DNA of 64,000 nt from Deltaproteobacteria bacterium (lineage in GTDB: Bacteria > Myxococcota_A > Polyangia > JAAYKL01). Made by a program: the position numbers and the translations under genes. Below are positions 1-30,723 of this stretch, piece by piece. Where the stretch lies: assembly GCA_016935665.1 (NCBI GenBank), contig JAFGQN010000073.1, forward strand, positions 21,943 through 85,942, given 5' to 3'. Under the pieces are notes generated by a model that was not told the origin of the DNA, made no database searches, and saw nothing but the letters and a program-made list of their open reading frames with translations. The first letter of the stretch is position 1, and every line of letters starts with the position of its first letter.

Positions 1-1323
1 TTTGTCCAGAATGCCAATGACTTCCCAGGTGACCTGCTCTGCCTGAGAGTATTTACCGGCATCCTTGTCCTGATCTGAGATGCGCATGGGCAGACTGTCA
101 ATGATGGTATCGATGTTATGCACCAGAAATTCCAGGTTGAACAGTCCAGTGGCACAGTTGAACAGAATGCGGTGTCCTTCGGCTTCTTTTTTTAGAACGT
201 CATCTTTGGAGATGGCAACTCCAATATCTGCACAATGCAGTCTATCGTTATCATCAACTACGAGCACGCCACCTTTCACATCTACCGGCGTTCGGAAAGA
301 AAAGTCAAAACCCGCGTCCTTTCCTTTCAACGCCATCAACGCAATAGAGACCGGATTGACAGTTGCCCCGAGGTTGTCGACATTTCCAATGTACACAAAA
401 CGTTTTCCCTGACTATACAACTGCCAGAATATATTTTTTAGAACAACAAAACTCTGACCGTGTCCACCAGGCATTGGCAGGGGTGTATCCGGCTTTCCGC
501 CGGCATTGGCAAAAATTCTTTTTGGGCTCCCCTCACAACTATGGGTGAGCGCAGCCAGCATGGGCTGAATACTGGAGGGCATATCGGTAATGTCCAGACC
601 TGTTTCCGCCATCAAATCAGTTAGCACTTCGCTGAATTTATACTTGCGATATGCTTCGGCCAGCTGGTCGTTGGTATGTACACTGGTCATCTGATACATC
701 GGAAACAGCGTTTTGCTGGACTTCATGCCATTAAGCATTTGCGATTTCAGCGCTTCAATTAAAACACCCCGCATTTTCAATTCCAGGAACGAGGGACCGT
801 GACTGCCGTCCATATTTATAAATGCTGGGGTTAGCCCTTTCGGTTGACCTTTGGATACCTTCGCCATGGACTCGAACTGCGCTTCGCAAATCTTAAAAAG
901 TGATTCGTTAAAGCTGACATTTTTACTCTTGTCCACGTAGCTGCTGGCGGAACCACCGTTGAGTACACCATAGGCAACAACATCGTAGAGTAATATCCCG
1001 ATACGCTCCAATGCGGCATTGTTAAATGTAATCTGGTCACCATCCAGGGTGCCTAGAGAATTGATATCGATAACGACACCGAGCCTGTCAATGGCGTGTT
1101 GTGCTTCACTCGCAAACATGGAAACAGATACATCCCCGGTAATGTCAATAATTCTTTTACCTTGTATTTTGGGAAAGTCTTTTGCGACAATGGGCACAAA
1201 GTGGTCGTATTTTCCAGTATTACACTTGTCGAGGATATTCTGTGTTAATTCAACATCAATGCCCATGGTTTTCATTTTTTCTATGAACGCAGGACTCAAA
1301 TTTTTGGTATCGGATTTTGGCAT
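1..1323 (-). CDS. UDP-sugar pyrophosphorylase (UDPGP family, UTP--glucose-1-phosphate uridylyltransferase-like); C-terminus beyond the window start
   Basis: Continuous minus-strand reading frame from ATG at 1323 (AGGAA about 9 nt upstream) to position 1. It is missing from the ORF track because no stop codon falls inside the window. Translation carries UDPGP-family motifs LNGGSASSY (cf. LNGGLGTxMG), PGGHGQSF (cf. PPGHGD) and IGNVDNLGATV (cf. NIDNLGA). Confidence 0.6.
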   Translation of the reverse strand, partial: MPKSDTKNLSPAFIEKMKTMGIDVELTQNILDKCNTGKYDHFVPIVAKDFPKIQGKRIIDITGDVSVSMFASEAQHAIDRLGVVIDINSLGTLDGDQITFNNAALERIGILLYDVVAYGVLNGGSASSYVDKSKNVSFNESLFKICEAQFESMAKVSKGQPKGLTPAFINMDGSHGPSFLELKMRGVLIEALKSQMLNGMKSSKTLFPMYQMTSVHTNDQLAEAYRKYKFSEVLTDLMAETGLDITDMPSSIQPMLAALTHSCEGSPKRIFANAGGKPDTPLPMPGGHGQSFVVLKNIFWQLYSQGKRFVYIGNVDNLGATVNPVSIALMALKGKDAGFDFSFRTPVDVKGGVLVVDDNDRLHCADIGVAISKDDVLKKEAEGHRILFNCATGLFNLEFLVHNIDTIIDSLPMRISDQDKDAGKYSQAEQVTWEVIGILDK

Positions 1324-1579
1324 TTGGGTGATTCCTGTTTTTTTTATAATTCTGACAGTTCTGATAACTTGAAAAATTTGTTCATTTTTATCAGGCTTAG
1401 GGCGTTTTTGTCATAAAGTTCGACTACTCGTCAATATTTGAATGAAGACATTCAGTGGGTTTCGAATGCATTCGCGCAAATCATGCCTCCGATTGTCAGA
1501 TAATGCACAGCTACTTCAGACCCTTGCCCGGATTTCTGTAAATCAGTATGGCGCCGTTGTTTTGTCGATTATGGACAAG

Positions 1580-1972
1580 CTATAGTTCGCGCACTTCAAC
1601 TTCTTCACTATCCGGCCCCTCAATAAATGCAATTCTCTTCTGTGCGGCATCACCGGAGGGGGGAATGAATGGCTCTTTTATCACCCTGATTCTAAACTCG
1701 TAACAGCGGCGAATAAACATGTCAAGGTCGTCGACGGTAAACGCAATATGATGAGGTCCAACTCCGTTCATTTCATTTGGGGTGGGTGTATCGCTGGACT
1801 TGACTGTATACAGTTCGATGATTGCAGACTCGGCGTCAATGAGACACAGCAGTCGTTCCTTGTATTGGTACGGTTTTTTGATCAATTTGAGTTCAAACAG
1901 TTCAGTATAAAAACGCAGCGCCTTCTCGAAATTGTCGGTTTGACAAGCAACGTGATGTAATTTTGTGGTCAT
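1580..1972 (-). CDS. VOC / glyoxalase-bleomycin resistance family protein
   Basis: 130 aa. Paired beta-alpha-beta-beta-beta module pattern (HHVACQTDNFEKALRFY ... GPHHIAFTVDDLD) typical of glyoxalase I-like VOC proteins. It begins 25 bp downstream of the TIR-radical SAM gene on the same strand. Confidence 0.65.
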   Translation of the reverse strand: MTTKLHHVACQTDNFEKALRFYTELFELKLIKKPYQYKERLLCLIDAESAIIELYTVKSSDTPTPNEMNGVGPHHIAFTVDDLDMFIRRCYEFRIRVIKEPFIPPSGDAAQKRIAFIEGPDSEEVEVREL

Positions 1973-1996
1973 TGTATCCCTTAAAACCCCTTTAAA

Positions 1997-4900
1997 CTAT
2001 TGTGTTCGGGAAGTTGAAACCCGACGTTTTGCTTCAAGCAGTCTATCGCATTCATCCACAAATGATTCTATAGCCTTACGAATACGTTTTTCATCGCCAT
2101 CATCACTATTGTCGGAATTTTGTAAAAGAATTTTGGCGTCATCTCTTACACATTCTACATCCCGTTCTTCGACGAGCTGGCACTTGTGAACTTCTTCTTT
2201 GGCAGCATCGGGTATGTTTTCAATGGGATAACTATTATCAGCTACAGCCATTTTAAATTTGCGTAACATGCTGTTCAGTCGTTTAGTTTGAAGAAGTTTG
2301 TCGCATTCATCCACAAATGAATCGATGGCTTTGGAAATGTGGTGTTTTCGTCCATTACCGCCACAGTTGGAATTTTGCAAAAGAATTCTGGCATCATCTC
2401 GCACACATTCCACATCTCTGTCTCCCACAAGCTGGCACTTATACACTTCTTCCTTTTTCGCATCGGGTATATCGTCGACAACATATCCATCATCTGCGAT
2501 AGCCATTGTATACTCGCATAAAAGGCTATTCAGGTATTCCTGATCGGAAAGCAGCCCCCGCTCTGAAAAGCTGGCTCTTGCCTGAATTAAATACATTTTT
2601 GCCTGGTCTGTCATTCCCATTGTCACTTGCAAAATTGAAATTCTGATAAGGCTTGCATAGAAACTTGGATTCAAAACTACAGAGAGTTCCAGTTTGCTAT
2701 ATGCCTGCAACGCAAAGACCGCATCTTTGTTTCGAAAATAGTCCCTCAGGATGGCGTACCCGTCACTGAAAAGCGCGTGGTACCGCAGCTTCGTATCATG
2801 TTGTATTGCGTGTTTTTCAGCCTTCAGAAATATTTTCTGGCGCTTGTCACTATCTGCTGGATTCGAACGATAGCTGGCGCCCAAACTTCTTTCAGATTCA
2901 ACGAGTAATTCTGGATATAGCCACTTAAAATTTGTTAATCCTGACAGTTTTCCTTCAATTCCCATAAGTGCCCGATGCTCAGCGTTCGATAAATGTTTCC
3001 GCGCTTTACCTTCCTTGCCTTTCTGTCTCCATAAACAACCCAAAATATATTCTTTTTGAGGACATTCTTTTTCGTTGGTTCGTTTGAGTGAATCCAATAA
3101 TAGCAGAACATCGTTTTCGTCAGTATTCTCCATGGATATTGCGCCCAAACAAAACATTGCATCAGAGTACGTGGCTTGCGATACAAGCTCGTCTTTGACG
3201 ATACATCGTAAAAGTTCCGTTACAATTCCCTGCGAAAGAATGGTTCTTGCCGATGAAAAAAGGGATTCATCGACGCTCAAATATTCAAGTAGCAGCAGGC
3301 TAATCAGGAGCTCGTCCCTGTATCTATCGTCCATGTGATCCTGCATCAGAAACACAAAAAAATATGCAGATTGAAGTAGCTTGGAACAAAGTTCTATCGT
3401 GTAGGAAATTTTTTCTTTGGAACACGCGCGCTCTCGAAAAAGTTGCTCATATTTACTGTCAGGTTGAATGACCTCTGCAGCAGTTCTGATAAGTTGGGTC
3501 AAATCGTAGGGAGTCTGTTGAACATTGGAAATTCGATCCCTCAAATCAGTAAGCTGTTTGGGAGTTAACTTGTTATTTGCTATACGAGCGAGTGGTGGCA
3601 AATGAGTGTAAAAACAAACAATGCCATACTTTCTTCGAATCGCAGAAGAAATGCCAATTAGCGGAGAGGATTCGTTGAAATGTGTATAGGAATAACGAGG
3701 TTTAAACGTATCCGGATTCCATCCTGAACACACACGCACCCGCCCATCTGCCGAAATACATATATCCTTTTCAACTGCGCAATACAAACAACGGGAAATA
3801 ATCTCATTGTCCATGTCACAATTAACTTTAACAAATTCGATTTTCAATCTTGTATGACGACGGACAAAGGACATTTTACGTTCGCCAGGAAGGGGGGAGA
3901 TATGGGGTTGATTATAGAGCCGGGCTTTGTTCCCGCTCACACAGGTTTTCGCAACATTAAAAATAGGAAATTTTTTTATTCGGCTGGAATTTCCTTCTCT
4001 CCGCAGAGTTTCGTCAGTATTCATATTAAATGGTTCAATAAACGCAATGCCAATAATTCTTTCGCCCAGGTATCCATGATATTTATCTTCTACCTCATCA
4101 ATCACGCGCTCGATTTCTGATACCCAATCATTAAAATTATCAGTATTGAGCTCAAGTACATGATTGAAACGTACTTTTATGTTTGTTTTTTTTAACAGCT
4201 GAGCAATCCCGTTTTCCACAGAATCAACATCCCACTGCTGCAGCGCCCCGGAATTATCCTGTCGTCTTGGGTATGAAACGCGAATAGATCCAATGTTGCT
4301 ATTATTGAGGTCCTCAATTCTTTGCTCTAAATGTATGCCGTTGGTAACTAAAAAACTGTTCTTCGGACAGGTCGCGAGTATTTGTTTAAGCGGGGCTGAG
4401 TTGTTCAATGGCTCTCCACCCGTAATTGTATACTCAAGTTTTGGCCCAGGATAAATCGGAGATTGAAGCGCACTTTTTTGAATATTTTCAAGGAGTTTTG
4501 ACAGTTTCTCCGGACGCGCCGCTATCCTGCGATCAAATTCGTCACCGTGACACCATGGACATTGAGGTACGCGATCACAGGCTGGGGTAATTTGAATACG
4601 TATACGTCGTTCAGAATCATTCGAAGACCGGTCTATCCTATGTTGCTGTATTTGTTGTCTGTACAATCCATAGTCAGATTCAATTTGATTACTAAGTTGT
4701 TTTAAATCGTCTTTTATATTGCGAGGGTCACATTCGTTGTCCCGAATATACTTTTTTGTCATAATGCCGAACGGCAAATCCTCAATCTTCAAATCTCCAA
4801 GAATTAGAGGAATGACATCCATTTGGCCTCTTAGCTGTCTTGACAAAACTTCCATCAATTCCATGTGGGCCCATGAATCATTTTTGATGTAGAAATTTGA

Positions 4901-5089
4901 TATAACCAAAATCGTTGAGGAACAGCTTTTTGTTGCATGGTCCATATAGTTGAAAAAGTTGGCGCCATATGGAAATTTAAAATCAATCCGTGGAGTAAGG
5001 CCAACATTTGTCATTTCTTCTGCGAGTTTTTTCACGTATTCCGTATCACGATGATCGTAACTGATGAAAGTTTCGGAAAGCTTTCTCAT
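1997..5089 (-). CDS. Multidomain TIR / radical SAM / SPASM-like / TPR-like protein with duplicated C-terminal module (candidate defence or signalling enzyme)
   Basis: ORF 1997..5161. The likely start is the ATG at 5089, with AGGAGA 7 nt upstream. TIR motifs: TFISYDHRD (box 1), ILVISNFYIKNDSWAHMELMEV (box 2 with conserved Glu), VIPLIL. Radical SAM core: ACDRVPQCPWCHG (CX5CX2C) and TITGGEPL. Cys-rich segment: CLYCAVEKDICISADGRVRVC. The C-terminal half is helical and repeat-rich, with two about 86-aa tandem copies at the extreme C-terminus. Confidence 0.75.
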   Translation of the reverse strand: MRKLSETFISYDHRDTEYVKKLAEEMTNVGLTPRIDFKFPYGANFFNYMDHATKSCSSTILVISNFYIKNDSWAHMELMEVLSRQLRGQMDVIPLILGDLKIEDLPFGIMTKKYIRDNECDPRNIKDDLKQLSNQIESDYGLYRQQIQQHRIDRSSNDSERRIRIQITPACDRVPQCPWCHGDEFDRRIAARPEKLSKLLENIQKSALQSPIYPGPKLEYTITGGEPLNNSAPLKQILATCPKNSFLVTNGIHLEQRIEDLNNSNIGSIRVSYPRRQDNSGALQQWDVDSVENGIAQLLKKTNIKVRFNHVLELNTDNFNDWVSEIERVIDEVEDKYHGYLGERIIGIAFIEPFNMNTDETLRREGNSSRIKKFPIFNVAKTCVSGNKARLYNQPHISPLPGERKMSFVRRHTRLKIEFVKVNCDMDNEIISRCLYCAVEKDICISADGRVRVCSGWNPDTFKPRYSYTHFNESSPLIGISSAIRRKYGIVCFYTHLPPLARIANNKLTPKQLTDLRDRISNVQQTPYDLTQLIRTAAEVIQPDSKYEQLFRERACSKEKISYTIELCSKLLQSAYFFVFLMQDHMDDRYRDELLISLLLLEYLSVDESLFSSARTILSQGIVTELLRCIVKDELVSQATYSDAMFCLGAISMENTDENDVLLLLDSLKRTNEKECPQKEYILGCLWRQKGKEGKARKHLSNAEHRALMGIEGKLSGLTNFKWLYPELLVESERSLGASYRSNPADSDKRQKIFLKAEKHAIQHDTKLRYHALFSDGYAILRDYFRNKDAVFALQAYSKLELSVVLNPSFYASLIRISILQVTMGMTDQAKMYLIQARASFSERGLLSDQEYLNSLLCEYTMAIADDGYVVDDIPDAKKEEVYKCQLVGDRDVECVRDDARILLQNSNCGGNGRKHHISKAIDSFVDECDKLLQTKRLNSMLRKFKMAVADNSYPIENIPDAAKEEVHKCQLVEERDVECVRDDAKILLQNSDNSDDGDEKRIRKAIESFVDECDRLLEAKRRVSTSRTQ

Positions 5090-5399
5090 TTTTTTCTCCT
5101 GTAGTCGAAACACATGCGAATGACGATTTTGTCGTTTTTTGAACCTTTTTTGTAGCGACAATTTCAGCAGAAATCAAGGTTTTTCCGGTTTCGGGCGAAT
5201 CCGGTACCATTGATATATCGCTGTGCAATCGTTACAATAAAAATCCTTTTTGTTGGTGTGTCGGCGTGGTCTGGTATTTTTATCGGAATGGTCGGTGAGT
5301 CGTCGGTAACGAAAATTTTTGTGATAGAAGAGAGAGGCGCTTTATTGCGATGAGTAAAAGAAATTTTTTACAATATTTTTAGTCGGATTTCGTGAATTT

Positions 5400-6467
5400 T
5401 TACTTAATCAAAATAACGCCGGCATTCGCGGCGCCGTACAAAGATATTGAATAATCCTTGATGATGTATACCGGTGTTTTCTTGAGCAGCGCGGTGTTGT
5501 TGGGTTTGTAATTCATTTCGAAATAGTTCATGAAAAGGTTGTTTTCCACGAGGTATTTTTCGTTTTTGGTCACAATTCCACCCGCCAGGTACATTCCACC
5601 GGCGCACATGAATACCAGCGACATGGATCCGGCGAATTTGCCGTACGCCTTTACAAACAGTTCCATGGCCTGTCTGCATACATCGTTGCCGTCGGCGTTT
5701 TTGGCCACCATGGCGGGTTTGTCGGCATTGTCGAGTTTGGCGATTTCCTGGCAGACGTCGTCTTTGCCAAGGCCTTTTTCTTCCAGCAGATAGTTGAAGA
5801 TATTGGCAATACCCTGGCCGGATACAAACGGTTCGGTCCCTGGCGCGATGCCCAGTTTTTTGGTCAGCCATGCGGTCAGTGCCACACTGTCATCATCAAA
5901 CGGCGCGAAGCCGGAGTGACCGCCTTCGGACGGGCATGCGGTGTAAACGCCATTGGATTCGGTCAGGAAGCCAACGCCCAGACCTGTGCCGGCGCCCACA
6001 ACGGCTTTGGTGGTGCCGGTTTGGGGCGGAAGTTCGCCGTCGGTGTTTTTAAGCTGCGTGATTTGCTCGGGATTGGAAACGTCCAGAGTGGGAATGCCGT
6101 ATCCAATGGCCAGAAAGTCGTTGATAACCAGTGTCTTTAATCCGGTTTTGGCTTCGATGGCCGCGCCGTCCACGTTCCAGTTGCAGTTGGTCAGTACGCA
6201 TACATTGTTGATTACCGGACCCGCCGCACTGATGCAGCAGATAGACGGTTTCAGCTTGTCGGATTTTTCCACCGCAGTTTGAATGGTCTGCAAAACGGGC
6301 CCAACCAGCTCCGTTACTTCGGAAGATTTGAAAATACATTCAACGATAATACTGTACTTTCCATCCTTTTTACCCACAACCGCCAGATTGGTATTGGTGC
6401 CACCCACATCGCCGGCAAGAATCAACATGTCCTGATCAAAATCTTCGCTCAACCATTTTACTTCCAT
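5400..6467 (-). CDS. glk: Glucokinase
   Basis: LILAGDVGGTNTNLAVV matches the glucokinase N-terminal ATP-binding motif (cf. LVGDIGGTNARFAL). Strong SD: CAGGAGGATCCGCG precedes the ATG at 6467. The longer ORF to 6557 lacks an RBS. Confidence 0.8.
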   Translation of the reverse strand: MEVKWLSEDFDQDMLILAGDVGGTNTNLAVVGKKDGKYSIIVECIFKSSEVTELVGPVLQTIQTAVEKSDKLKPSICCISAAGPVINNVCVLTNCNWNVDGAAIEAKTGLKTLVINDFLAIGYGIPTLDVSNPEQITQLKNTDGELPPQTGTTKAVVGAGTGLGVGFLTESNGVYTACPSEGGHSGFAPFDDDSVALTAWLTKKLGIAPGTEPFVSGQGIANIFNYLLEEKGLGKDDVCQEIAKLDNADKPAMVAKNADGNDVCRQAMELFVKAYGKFAGSMSLVFMCAGGMYLAGGIVTKNEKYLVENNLFMNYFEMNYKPNNTALLKKTPVYIIKDYSISLYGAANAGVILIK

Positions 6468-6727
6468 CGCGGATCCTCCTGAATCAATAACAATCCCCGA
6501 AGTAAATCGGAGATCGGTTAAGTTTGTTTGGGTTTTTATTCCAATTGAATGAAACACACAATTGAAAATTGCTTTTTTAACGCGTTGTTTCAGGGCTCAT
6601 ATAGCGACAGGATGCGCGGGATGGTTTGTTGACATTGGTATACAATGACTTACACTATCTGTCGTTGGCCGAGGAATCGGCAACCAACGCTGAAATCTTT
6701 GTAACCAGACAATAATGGGGGGCCGTT

Positions 6728-12399: not shown

Positions 12400-12402
12400 T
12401 TG

Positions 12403-12474
<72 letters not shown>

Positions 12475-29151: not shown

Positions 29152-30723
29152 ATGAAAAAAGTGATTCTGGTTTTTGTTCCCGGCGCCGCGCCGAACTGCA
29201 TTCCTCTGGGTATCGCGTCTCTTTTTGCCTACGCCCAAAATGCGTTGCCGGACATTGCCATCTCCATGGTGGATTTAAGTATTCTCTTTTGGAATCGATT
29301 GGCGGTGGGCGACAAAATCGGCAGAGACGAAACAGAAGCGCTGTACCAGACCGCCGATGCGTTTTTCAACAAGACGCTGTATTTGGAAAAAAGACACAAA
29401 ATGGCAGCATTGATGACTCGCTGGCAGCAGATAACGCATTCCCTGATGACCCGGCTGAGTGGTGATAAACAGGAAATGGATCCGTGGTACACCGCGACCC
29501 TGTTTGAAAAGTTGGAGGTGACGGATACAGATATTGTGGCATTATCGGCAGCGTATCCCGAACAGCTTTTTCATGCGGCGGTGATCGCGCGGTTGCTGAA
29601 ATCGCGTTATCCGAATCTGACCGTTGTGCTGGGGGGATCCGCGTTGCCATCCATTCATCCCAGCACCTTTATGGCTGCGGTTCCTCAGTTGGATGGTCTG
29701 TATCTGGGAGAAGGAGAGCAGGGGCTGGTGGACTATATTTTGGGCCAATCCCATGAAAGTCGTGGCTGGATGGTGCGGGAAAGGGGACAGATAACCTCGG
29801 GCAGGCGCCCTTTAGCGATTCCCATGCAGAATCTGCCTGCCCCCTCATTCCATGATCTGCACATCTCCACGCGTTGGATGCCCACACCGGTATTGCCGGT
29901 GGCGTTTTCAAGAGGGTGCAAGTGGCGAAAGTGCGCATTCTGTTGCCACAATTTTGGATTTGCCGGATATCGCACGAATGATTATGCGCGGTTTGCAACG
30001 CATTTGGAACAATTGCAACAGCAGTATCACGCCGCGTATTTCTATTTTACCGACCAGTATATTGACGCGAACGCGCTTCATGGAATTGCAACCGAAATTC
30101 TTAAACGCAAATTGCAGATTCGATTCCACGTGATGGGTCGGCCCACTTCAGACTACACCAGAGAGGTGCTGGAACTATTGTTTGAAGCGGGATGCCGATG
30201 GATTAGCTGGGGTGTGGAATCCGGGGCACAATCGCTGCTCGACGGATGTCAGAAAGGGACACAGGTGGCCGCAGTGGCCCGTGTGCTCAAACACAGTCAT
30301 TTGGCAGGCATCAATAATCTGGCCATGATGGTGTTTGGATTGCCGGGAACCAATGATGCGCTTTTTCAGGAGACGCTGGATTTTGCCACCGATGTGAGTC
30401 CCTGGGTAGATGCGTTTACAGACTCCAGTTTTCAATTATTTGAAGGAACGCCGTATTATAATCGCGCCCAAGCGATGGGCATATTTCCCGGCGAGAATGA
30501 AATACTGTTTAAAGTGGGTAATGTTGCGGTGGTGTCCAATCGGCTCGCATATCGATATACGTCACAAAATGGAGAACCGGTCCTGCCGCCGGGCCCCGGT
30601 GAGGTGGCCCTGTGGCAACGATGGAAGGCGTGGATTCGCGGCGAGTCTTTTTTTGAAACGCTGTCCGCTGAGCATTATCTGTTGATTGCAGATCACCTGT
30701 CCAAAGCACCACTGCTCAATTGA
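29152..30723 (+). CDS. B12-binding-domain radical SAM protein (class B-like)
   Basis: N-terminal Rossmann-like B12-binding-type region. Cys cluster GCKWRKCAFCC (CX4CX2C) and WGVESGAQSLLDGCQKG, typical of B12-rSAM enzymes. Confidence 0.65.
   Translation: MKKVILVFVPGAAPNCIPLGIASLFAYAQNALPDIAISMVDLSILFWNRLAVGDKIGRDETEALYQTADAFFNKTLYLEKRHKMAALMTRWQQITHSLMTRLSGDKQEMDPWYTATLFEKLEVTDTDIVALSAAYPEQLFHAAVIARLLKSRYPNLTVVLGGSALPSIHPSTFMAAVPQLDGLYLGEGEQGLVDYILGQSHESRGWMVRERGQITSGRRPLAIPMQNLPAPSFHDLHISTRWMPTPVLPVAFSRGCKWRKCAFCCHNFGFAGYRTNDYARFATHLEQLQQQYHAAYFYFTDQYIDANALHGIATEILKRKLQIRFHVMGRPTSDYTREVLELLFEAGCRWISWGVESGAQSLLDGCQKGTQVAAVARVLKHSHLAGINNLAMMVFGLPGTNDALFQETLDFATDVSPWVDAFTDSSFQLFEGTPYYNRAQAMGIFPGENEILFKVGNVAVVSNRLAYRYTSQNGEPVLPPGPGEVALWQRWKAWIRGESFFETLSAEHYLLIADHLSKAPLLN

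Follow-up and report, generated by a model that had tools for sequence, protein, structure and literature searches.

A radical SAM and helical core with interchangeable N-terminal modules and a VOC partner: a candidate two-gene conflict cassette carrying a TIR domain in a deltaproteobacterium

Background

To our knowledge, a role in antiviral immunity has been demonstrated for no radical SAM enzymes other than viperins. Their prokaryotic representatives (pVips) are anti-phage enzymes that make ddhNTP chain terminators, and viperin is not known to possess a second Cys cluster. A different use of the same superfamily within predicted conflict systems was described by Kaur et al. 2020, who reported radical SAM effectors in the vWA-MoxR FtsH ternary systems, where the domain forms an effector of its own, with peptide modification as its predicted activity, and is found without fusion to TIR or CHAT, without a helical domain and without a partner from the VOC superfamily (PMC7159879).

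On the side of the effectors, the STAND/Avs and TIR-bearing immune proteins combine a swappable N-terminal module (TIR, CHAT, HD or transmembrane) with C-terminal TPR-like repeats, and the TIRs of the Thoeris ThsB/BtTir type possess a TIR_2 domain with a conserved Glu, the residue that is catalytic in TIR NADases. Here we analyze a gene from a 64,000-nt stretch of deltaproteobacterial DNA (the window), whose product shares features with each of these groups. The original prediction, made from the letters of the window, named TIR with radical SAM as a combination not known from any described family, and indeed we found no description of such a cassette in the searchable literature. We propose, with a probability of about 0.5, that the gene and its small downstream neighbor together constitute a conflict cassette of two genes that is horizontally mobile and most likely serves in anti-phage defense or abortive infection.

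Results and discussion

The gene occupies positions 1997..5089 of the minus strand (stop codon 1997..1999) and encodes a protein of 1030 aa. The ORF originally considered, 1997..5161, is present on this strand and would yield 1054 aa if read from an upstream TTG at 5161; however, the ATG at 5089 is the likely start. A Shine-Dalgarno-like AGGAG can be read from the sequence at 5096..5100 (minus strand), with a 6-nt spacer to this ATG, and the 1030-aa product is identical to NCBI MBN2526502.1. The public annotation of the latter, "TIR domain-containing protein", leaves the enzymatic part entirely hidden. All motifs previously quoted for the protein are there (FISYDHRD, SWAHMELMEV, ACDRVPQCPWC with its CX5CX2C pattern, GGEPL and CLYCAVEKDICISADGRVRVC), and they follow the claimed order, from TIR through radical SAM and the auxiliary Cys cluster to the helical repeat. 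A promoter and terminator scan of positions 1200..5500 revealed nothing exceeding the shuffled expectation.

The chance that this architecture is an artefact, with an assembly error or a frameshift having joined separate TIR and radical SAM genes, is negligible: the same full-length arrangement is kept at 27-41% identity in independent assemblies from several phyla, and the identical protein occurs also on a second assembly (a Logan read set).

The TIR domain (4670..5077, minus strand; aa ~5-140) passes the Pfam TIR_2 profile (PF13676) with 48.9 bits versus the cutoff of 28 (E 1.1e-12; aa 32-125 of the 1054-aa ORF), in agreement with the earlier assignment. Foldseek matches it to BtTir (7uxr, TMt 0.65), to the TIR of MAL (0.64) and also to the TIRs of RUN1 and SPARTA, the confidence of the predicted structure within this domain being moderate only. 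BtTir 7uxr is also the best sequence match in the PDB, and the Glu of its WxxxE motif (WTEYEL) is aligned to the conserved E77 in WAHMEL, which is retained in 15 out of 15 family members with TIR_2 as well as in the member with DUF4062. We predict that E77 is the intact catalytic residue of an NAD+-cleaving TIR domain in this genome. An identity with Thoeris was considered and rejected, as the PADLOC match to ThsB is weak (2.8e-4) and there is no ThsA-like neighbor; in contrast to ThsB/BtTir, the TIR domain analyzed here is not a stand-alone sensor and can be replaced by unrelated effectors.

Downstream of the TIR domain lies the radical SAM core (3890..4615, minus strand; aa ~159-400). Upon realignment of 21 family sequences, the three Cys residues of the cluster motif CDRVPQCPWC (C171-X5-C177-X2-C180; 4550..4579, minus strand) and the GGEP SAM-binding motif (aa 224-227; 4409..4420, minus strand), which aligns with GGEP of MoaA, are all invariant, as are R161/R164, TN, R307/N309 and four further Cys residues. 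The model exhibits the partial TIM-barrel fold of radical SAM enzymes, with MoaA as the top match by both fold methods. The window protein falls below the threshold of PF04055 (no match at E<=1), which is passed by its relatives P0013, P0014, P0015, P0016, P0017, P0018, P0023 and L021 (31.7-40.3 bits versus 29.5). We regard the core as a MoaA/viperin-related enzyme with two Cys clusters, predicted to cleave SAM.

The spacing CX5CX2C, highlighted earlier as non-canonical, is present in this protein but is a lineage-specific loop insertion in three members rather than a trait of the family: 18 of the 21 members have CX3CX2C, while the first spacer is longer by 2 aa in the window protein and by 5 aa in P0002 and P0009. 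Some known radical SAM enzymes tolerate longer first spacers. The parallel drawn with the second radical SAM gene of the window (29152..30723) is coincidental; this gene, ~24 kb away, encodes a B12-binding class B enzyme and was rejected as a related component.

The second Cys cluster (C424-X9-C434-X2-C437-X16-C454; 3728..3820, minus strand) is a candidate auxiliary Fe-S site with four invariant Cys residues, situated in the most conserved region of the protein (46% mean identity). The cluster noted originally is present, but the label "SPASM-like" was imprecise: SPASM (PF13186) shows no match at E<=1, and just four invariant Cys residues are found downstream of the core, compared to the seven-Cys motif. 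The CX2CX16C part falls inside the alignments of four relatives to the MoaA model, and in a global hhalign comparison it pairs in register with CX2CX13C of MoaA, at low column confidence. The profile of the cluster region alone, searched against PDB sequences, retrieved no MoaA or twitch match and only a weak zinc ribbon (E 0.9); because of this failure, the homology to the auxiliary cluster of MoaA relies on the full-length HMM envelopes and the low-confidence global alignment. The extra invariant residue, C424, could contribute to a four-Cys site or to a zinc site.

MoaA is the GTP 3',8-cyclase, a radical SAM enzyme of the SPASM/twitch group. Its R17 and the Arg pair that binds guanine have roles that have been described (PMC9026282), enabling a residue-level comparison. 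In the HMM alignment to 1tv7, R17 (S. aureus numbering) pairs with the invariant R164, located 7 residues upstream of C171. On the other hand, the positions aligned to R266/R268, after CX2C, are variable and non-basic, with E/D at 440 and the invariant D442, in a region where the alignment is of low confidence. Since the guanine-binding pair is not conserved, a nucleotide substrate is a guess. The scores against the MoaA equivalog models (31.4 and 32.5 bits versus cutoffs of 284 and 325) amount to about one tenth of what membership demands, and the protein further departs from MoaA in possessing C424, in its fusion to TIR and to a helical domain of 530 aa, into which the polypeptide runs on instead of ending in the Gly-Gly tail, and in its gene neighbors, which include no moaC or other Moco genes at any of the loci examined. 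The relationship to viperins is not closer: the viperin_w_prok model gives 19.4 bits versus the cutoff of 180, and the PADLOC matches to pVip are partial (~150 of 260 positions). The second Cys cluster, the fusion with an effector and a helical domain, and the VOC partner all set the protein apart from pVips.

These comparisons bear on a reading that we consider rather unlikely, namely that the radical SAM and helical core modifies a macromolecule (a peptide, a protein, or an RNA held by the solenoid) in the manner of the SPASM/twitch peptide maturases, which would make the cassette either toxin-like or a system for modification, perhaps with a link to conflict all the same. SPASM is undetected and the additional Cys residues number only four, MoaA is preferred by both fold methods and the equivalent of R17 is invariant, and in 11 loci, inspected up to 600 nt from the cassette, there is no conserved small ORF that might encode a precursor peptide.

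The TPR-like solenoid (2522..3589, minus strand; aa ~501-856) is modeled as helices throughout (pLDDT mostly 80-90), and its Foldseek matches are TPR superhelices, e.g. those of Ctr9 and OGT, which bears out the helical or TPR-like character initially ascribed to this part; in the relatives, the domain yields weak Pfam TPR matches. The structure models, built from 8 sequences, are of moderate confidence as a whole (pLDDT about 72). Among the matches listed in a search with the profile of the helical domain only, whose prefilter was saturated, the sole entry was an N-terminally truncated family fragment, and in the sequences covered the domain is always accompanied by the radical SAM core. Its second half is better conserved than the catalytic core (39% versus 33%); the domain is not hypervariable and is therefore hardly what one would expect of a domain that senses a diversity of phage proteins directly. 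It is followed by a helical module (copy 1, aa 857-940; 2270..2521, minus strand) with the invariant D892 and C895, and by its duplicate (copy 2, aa 941-1030; 2000..2269, minus strand). Pairwise alignment of the two copies (63% aa and 73% nt identity) confirms the duplication reported earlier, which was missed by Tandem Repeats Finder and is unique to this protein, as no other family member has copy 2.

The partner gene (1580..1972, minus strand) begins 24 nt past the stop codon of the large gene and encodes a 130-aa protein of the VOC (glyoxalase/bleomycin-resistance/dioxygenase) superfamily, which matches PF00903 with 48 bits versus the cutoff of 20.6 (2e-12). H7, E53, H75, E124 and E126 are invariant among the partners from five loci, and the protein is a predicted metalloenzyme in which the paired H/E metal ligands are intact. 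It fails each of the specific equivalog models (YaeR, 45.9 versus 140; MMCE, 38.4 versus 115; GlxI, 37 versus 120). Among the 14 cases that could be read, the VOC gene is directly downstream in nine, fused to the C-terminus of the large protein in two (P0018 and P0019), replaced by a viperin-like radical SAM gene in one, and absent in two. The nine cases come from distinct members, among them the variants with CHAT and with transmembrane helices described below, and the VOC gene often overlaps the stop codon of its upstream neighbor. This conserved partner had escaped notice in the first reading of the sequence.

About 20 full-length cluster representatives share the radical SAM and helical core, and on this unchanged core the N-terminal position varies. 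TIR_2 occupies it in 15 of the 21 sequences, DUF4062 in P0016, a CHAT protease in P0015 and L021 (both over the Pfam cutoff; PADLOC chat, 5e-19), HD-CE in P0018, P0019 and P0023 (with the cutoff passed by P0023 only), and three transmembrane helices in P0013. A literature search for HD-CE returned unrelated papers only. The CHAT variant is present on two independent contigs, so the N-terminal variants are unlikely to be assembly chimeras.

This variation disfavors both mechanisms that were initially put forward, according to which the radical SAM enzyme acts chemically on a nucleotide that its fused TIR produces, or the TIR gates a radical SAM effector. The two domains do share one polypeptide, the catalytic Glu of the TIR is conserved, and MoaA-like enzymes act on nucleotides (PMC9026282). 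Nonetheless, members that lack TIR and instead have a CHAT, HD-CE or transmembrane N-terminus retain the same core and its VOC partner, and hence the chemistry of the radical SAM enzyme cannot hinge on anything made by TIR; we consider these mechanisms very improbable. On this comparison the TIR domain is a replaceable predicted effector rather than a gate.

If effectors are swapped, the core would be the control unit. The radical SAM domain might then serve as a sensor or guard, responding to SAM loss, Fe-S damage or a phage-specific nucleotide, replacing the STAND NTPase switch and triggering the N-terminal effector. The effector-central-helical layout does mirror that of STAND/Avs, with radical SAM at the position of the NTPase, but the VOC enzyme, closely linked and in two members fused, keeps its metal ligands, and this and the invariant catalytic residues argue for turnover chemistry, and we know of no precedent for a radical SAM domain acting as an immune sensor; this reading appears quite improbable. 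As for STAND proteins themselves, an identity with them was rejected: the layout of effector and C-terminal repeats is there, but the central P-loop NTPase (NACHT, NB-ARC) is absent in the Pfam, NCBIfam and PADLOC scans. The family also differs from STAND/Avs in that its repeats are conserved rather than diversified and that it possesses a small enzyme partner.

The family is found in metagenome-assembled genomes of Deltaproteobacteria, Falkowbacteria, Ignavibacteria and Cloacimonadota. With occurrences in 3 of 185,579 species genomes, the cassette is rare; a scan of IMG/VR found no viral relatives, and the flanking genes differ and are unrelated from locus to locus. In the window, its GC content is 0.414, compared to 0.507 for the remainder, which, like the unrelated flanks, speaks for mobility. 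Some loci are near Shedu, restriction enzyme or toxin-antitoxin genes, while in L003 and in the genome of the window its neighbors are housekeeping genes and not a defense island. The latter neighborhoods are in line with a cassette for small-molecule biosynthesis or salvage without an immune role, in which the product or repair target of the radical SAM and VOC enzymes would be a metabolite, and TIR and the alternative N-termini would have regulatory or scaffolding functions. Likewise, VOC enzymes are typically metabolic isomerases, epimerases or lyases, and the MoaA-like fold is that of a cofactor pathway. Yet the exchange of TIR, CHAT, HD-CE, DUF4062 and transmembrane modules is typical of conflict effectors and not of metabolic enzymes, the distribution is extremely sparse and patchy, the GC content is low and the flanks are unrelated, and the MoaA membership tests failed, with Moco genes not adjacent. 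A purely metabolic role is, in our opinion, unlikely.

We therefore return to the conflict cassette. A role in defense or conflict, which we infer, has become more plausible than it was for the TIR-bearing protein considered singly, because relatives have CHAT, HD-CE, DUF4062 or transmembrane modules where this protein has TIR. In the scenario we propose, the constant core would be the radical SAM enzyme with its conserved TPR-like domain, paired with the small VOC metalloenzyme, and the N-terminal slot would hold an interchangeable cell-damaging effector, which is TIR in this genome. The radical SAM domain would cleave SAM reductively and abstract hydrogen from a small nucleotide-like substrate, the leading guess being a nucleoside triphosphate, as suggested by the MoaA-like fold and by the Arg equivalent to R17 of MoaA. 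The VOC enzyme could process the product further or detoxify it, and the helical domain could control assembly or access of the substrate. Activation would gather the TIR domains, leading to the degradation of NAD+. Counting against the conflict cassette are the housekeeping neighbors, the sub-threshold score for PF04055, the 5-residue Cys spacing, the conserved rather than hypervariable helical domain, the missing guanine-binding Arg pair, the moderate confidence of the structure models and the two members without a VOC neighbor.

Conclusions

We tentatively suggest that a radical SAM enzyme might be the central engine of a modular immune or conflict protein, taking the place of the STAND NTPase, and that together with the VOC enzyme it might make or sense a new modified nucleotide controlling TIR, CHAT, HD or membrane effectors; this stronger proposal is possible rather than probable. 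If it is true, the family would provide immunity with a second radical SAM module, architecturally unrelated to viperins, which is connected with effectors of the TIR, caspase-like, HD and membrane types and has a VOC metalloenzyme as its partner, and would thereby widen the known chemistry of immunity. As a compact two-gene system, the cassette is directly testable, and it could reveal a new antiviral or signaling nucleotide.

Architecture of the TIR-radical SAM protein and its family

The large gene is a single open reading frame (1997-5161, minus strand, mechanical start TTG), in which all motifs quoted in the original prediction are present. Inspection of the sequence reveals AGGAG and a 6-nt spacer preceding an ATG at 5089, and initiation at this codon yields a 1030-aa product, identical to MBN2526502.1, an NCBI entry from a Deltaproteobacteria MAG with no annotation beyond "toll/interleukin-1 receptor domain-containing protein". 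Residue numbers used here follow the 1030-aa form. An exhaustive profile search returned a family of about 20 full-length cluster representatives, together with fragments, mostly on short contigs. The core composed of the radical SAM and helical domains is present in all full-length representatives. The concern that the fusion could result from a frameshift or from misassembly is dispelled by the conservation of this architecture among the relatives, which excludes an assembly artefact for all practical purposes.

The N-terminus of the family varies. A TIR_2 domain is found in 15 of 21 sequences, including the protein from the window, where it scores 48.9 bits against the Pfam cutoff of 28, as the original prediction had anticipated. 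Its best match among solved sequences is the bacterial BtTir, with E77 aligned to the Glu of the WxxxE motif, and an equivalent Glu is retained in all TIR-bearing relatives. Elsewhere this position is occupied by the TIR-like DUF4062 (P0016), by a CHAT protease (P0015 and L021, above the Pfam cutoff and at 5e-19 with the PADLOC chat model), by HD-CE (P0018, P0019 and P0023, only the last above the cutoff), or by three hydrophobic helices (P0013). Domain swapping on a constant chassis is what characterises the effector modules of prokaryotic conflict systems (compare PMC7159879). Judging from these comparisons, the TIR domain is an interchangeable effector, since the core and the partner gene persist where it has been replaced; the radical SAM chemistry therefore cannot depend on a TIR product. 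The same observation disfavours both mechanisms suggested in the original prediction, namely modification of a TIR-derived nucleotide by the radical SAM enzyme and gating of a radical SAM effector by TIR, while the swapping of N-termini strengthens its general reading of a putative role in defence or conflict. In the CHAT variant L021 (482-3760), residues 225-284, downstream of CHAT and ahead of the radical SAM core, exhibit a weak, sub-threshold match to EAD7 (Effector-associated domain 7; E-value 0.001, 19.2 bits vs. 32), a hint of the kind of adaptor that conflict systems typically contain.

The family is rare. Among 185,579 species-representative genomes it occurs in three (Falkowbacteria, Ignavibacteria and Cloacimonadota), and five loci were found in JGI metagenomes; a scan of IMG/VR returned no members. 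It could be argued that the cassette is purely metabolic, but the effector swapping and the sparse distribution make this quite unlikely.

The radical SAM domain and the second cysteine cluster

The Pfam model PF04055 does not match the protein from the window, and on its face the test proposed in the original prediction failed. Nonetheless, profile comparisons indicate that the radical SAM domain is real, because it is matched by the MoaA equivalog models (E-values 4e-8 and 9e-8) and by the viperin/pVip models (5e-4 and 3.5e-7), because the family profile matches solved radical SAM enzymes (Tes, 5e-7; MoaA, 4e-6; NifB, 8e-6), because hhalign with Escherichia coli MoaA gives a probability of 97-98%, and because eight relatives score above the PF04055 cutoff. 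Residues R161, R164, Q166, C171, C177, C180, H181, D183, the GGEP motif (224-227), T249, N250, R307 and N309 are invariant in 21 sequences. R164 is aligned with R17 of Staphylococcus aureus MoaA, an essential active-site residue (PMC9026282). The non-canonical CX5CX2C spacing was correctly noted for this protein, but it is not typical of the family: 18 of 21 members possess the canonical CX3CX2C, and insertions of 2 or 5 residues are limited to the protein from the window and two close relatives.

The second cluster (C424, C434, C437 and C454) is invariant and located where the protein is most conserved (residues 401-500, mean pairwise identity of 46% in alignment A4). No SPASM profile matches the protein from the window, contrary to the SPASM-like domain initially proposed. 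The CX2CX16C part of the cluster falls within the MoaA-model alignments of four relatives, and a global profile alignment places it in register with CX2CX13C of MoaA. By itself, the region shows no significant similarity to anything solved, and the two arginines with which MoaA binds guanine have no conserved counterparts in the family. The cluster is best described as a putative auxiliary site of the MoaA/twitch type with an extra Cys; alternatively, it could bind zinc. A macromolecule-modifying, maturase-like radical SAM enzyme is unlikely, given that no SPASM domain is detected and that no small ORF is conserved within 600 nt of the cassette in 11 loci.

The helical and C-terminal modules

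The domain at residues ~501-856 is helical throughout and is matched by TPR superhelices (structure models built from 8 sequences, with moderate confidence). In alignment A4, the second half of this domain (residues 701-856) exhibits a mean pairwise identity of 39%, compared to 33% for the radical SAM core and 32% for the TIR domain. Because the helical domain is not hypervariable, its second half being more conserved than the catalytic core, a role in binding a fixed partner or in assembly is more likely than the sensing of diverse phage proteins. Such high conservation is unexpected for repeats acting as a diversifying sensor.

The C-terminal helical module of ~85 aa, in which D892 and C895 are invariant, is tandemly duplicated in the protein from the window only (2000-2269 and 2270-2521, minus strand; 63% identity at the amino acid and 73% at the nucleotide level). 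Tandem Repeats Finder did not detect this duplication.

The partner gene

A gene encoding a 130-aa member of the VOC superfamily (1580-1972; PF00903 above the cutoff) is located 24 nt past the stop of the large gene. The same VOC subfamily is encoded by a separate downstream gene, often overlapping the stop, in the window and next to P0003, P0004, P0005, P0006, P0007, the CHAT variants P0015 and L021 and the transmembrane variant P0013 (partial); in the HD-CE variants P0018 and P0019 it is fused to the C-terminus. No downstream partner was seen for P0008 or for L018, where only 323 nt are readable. The VOC partners retain the H/E/H/E metal ligands and resemble YaeR/SMU1112c, methylmalonyl-CoA epimerase and glyoxalase I, missing all equivalog cutoffs.

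P0017 has a viperin-like small radical SAM protein in place of VOC. In its subclade, this second small radical SAM gene (L026:4030-4809, plus strand) overlaps the stop and encodes CNGGCPGC and GGGEP motifs. Its homolog P0041 (L024:5394-6731) is a complete 445-aa gene, in which a remnant of the family C-terminal module is fused to a small radical SAM domain; its best NCBIfam match is viperin_w_prok (7.7e-18, 64.6 bits vs. a cutoff of 180), spanning model positions 7-250 of 281.

Genomic context

The flanks of the cassette differ between loci and contain unrelated genes. In the source genome (L027; window 1-6557), it lies between a glucokinase gene (5400-6557, minus strand) and a UDPGP-family gene that extends past the left end of the window. 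At 0.414, the GC content of the cassette is below that of the remaining window sequence (0.507), which points to its insertion by horizontal transfer. The sole tRNA gene in the window, tRNA-Gly (GCC) at 12402-12474 (minus strand), is not adjacent to the cassette but ~7 kb away.

Some loci of the family have known genes of the defence or toxin-antitoxin type in their vicinity (Shedu SduA, a Gp49/HTH pair and an EcoO109I-type restriction endonuclease; L001:20860-22215, L001:2699-3332 and L008:4088-4832), long contigs being few. Two genomes that are not related to each other, from Ignavibacteria and Cloacimonadota, carry DUF2971 genes no more than a few kb from the cassette (L001:1691-2413, minus strand; L016:13556-14338, plus strand, the same as L005:4235-5017); the proximity may be coincidental or reflect a loose association. 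The second radical SAM gene of the window (29152-30723, plus strand) encodes a B12-binding class B enzyme (PF04055, 1.2e-13; PF02310, 4e-8) with the predicted CX4CX2C motif (RGCKWRKCAFC); located about 24 kb away, it is without apparent connection to the cassette.

Relationship to known systems and possible function

Identification as MoaA, viperin, a SPASM maturase, STAND or Thoeris was considered, and each is contradicted by one or more of the tests that define membership. In agreement with the original prediction, the searchable full-text literature yielded no account of either the cassette or a fusion of TIR with radical SAM; what comes closest is a radical SAM effector, not fused to other domains, of vWA-MoxR systems (PMC7159879). 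It is rather doubtful that the cassette represents a categorically new mechanism. In its working it would most resemble a hybrid of two known themes, the viperin-style radical SAM nucleotide enzyme and the modular effector-plus-repeat immune protein, with radical SAM in the usual position of the NTPase.

The best explanation of the family, to which we assign a probability of about one half, is a mobile two-gene conflict cassette. The results above establish the identities of the domains, the conservation of catalytic residues, the swapping of effectors and the linkage of the partner gene; a function in defence, the substrate and the order of events we infer. The radical SAM domain could instead serve as a sensor, which we find very unlikely. 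In the conflict cassette, the MoaA/viperin-related enzyme would act on a nucleotide-like substrate, the VOC enzyme would process or neutralise its product, the helical domain would govern assembly or access, and the N-terminal effector, here a predicted TIR NADase, would damage the cell once activated.
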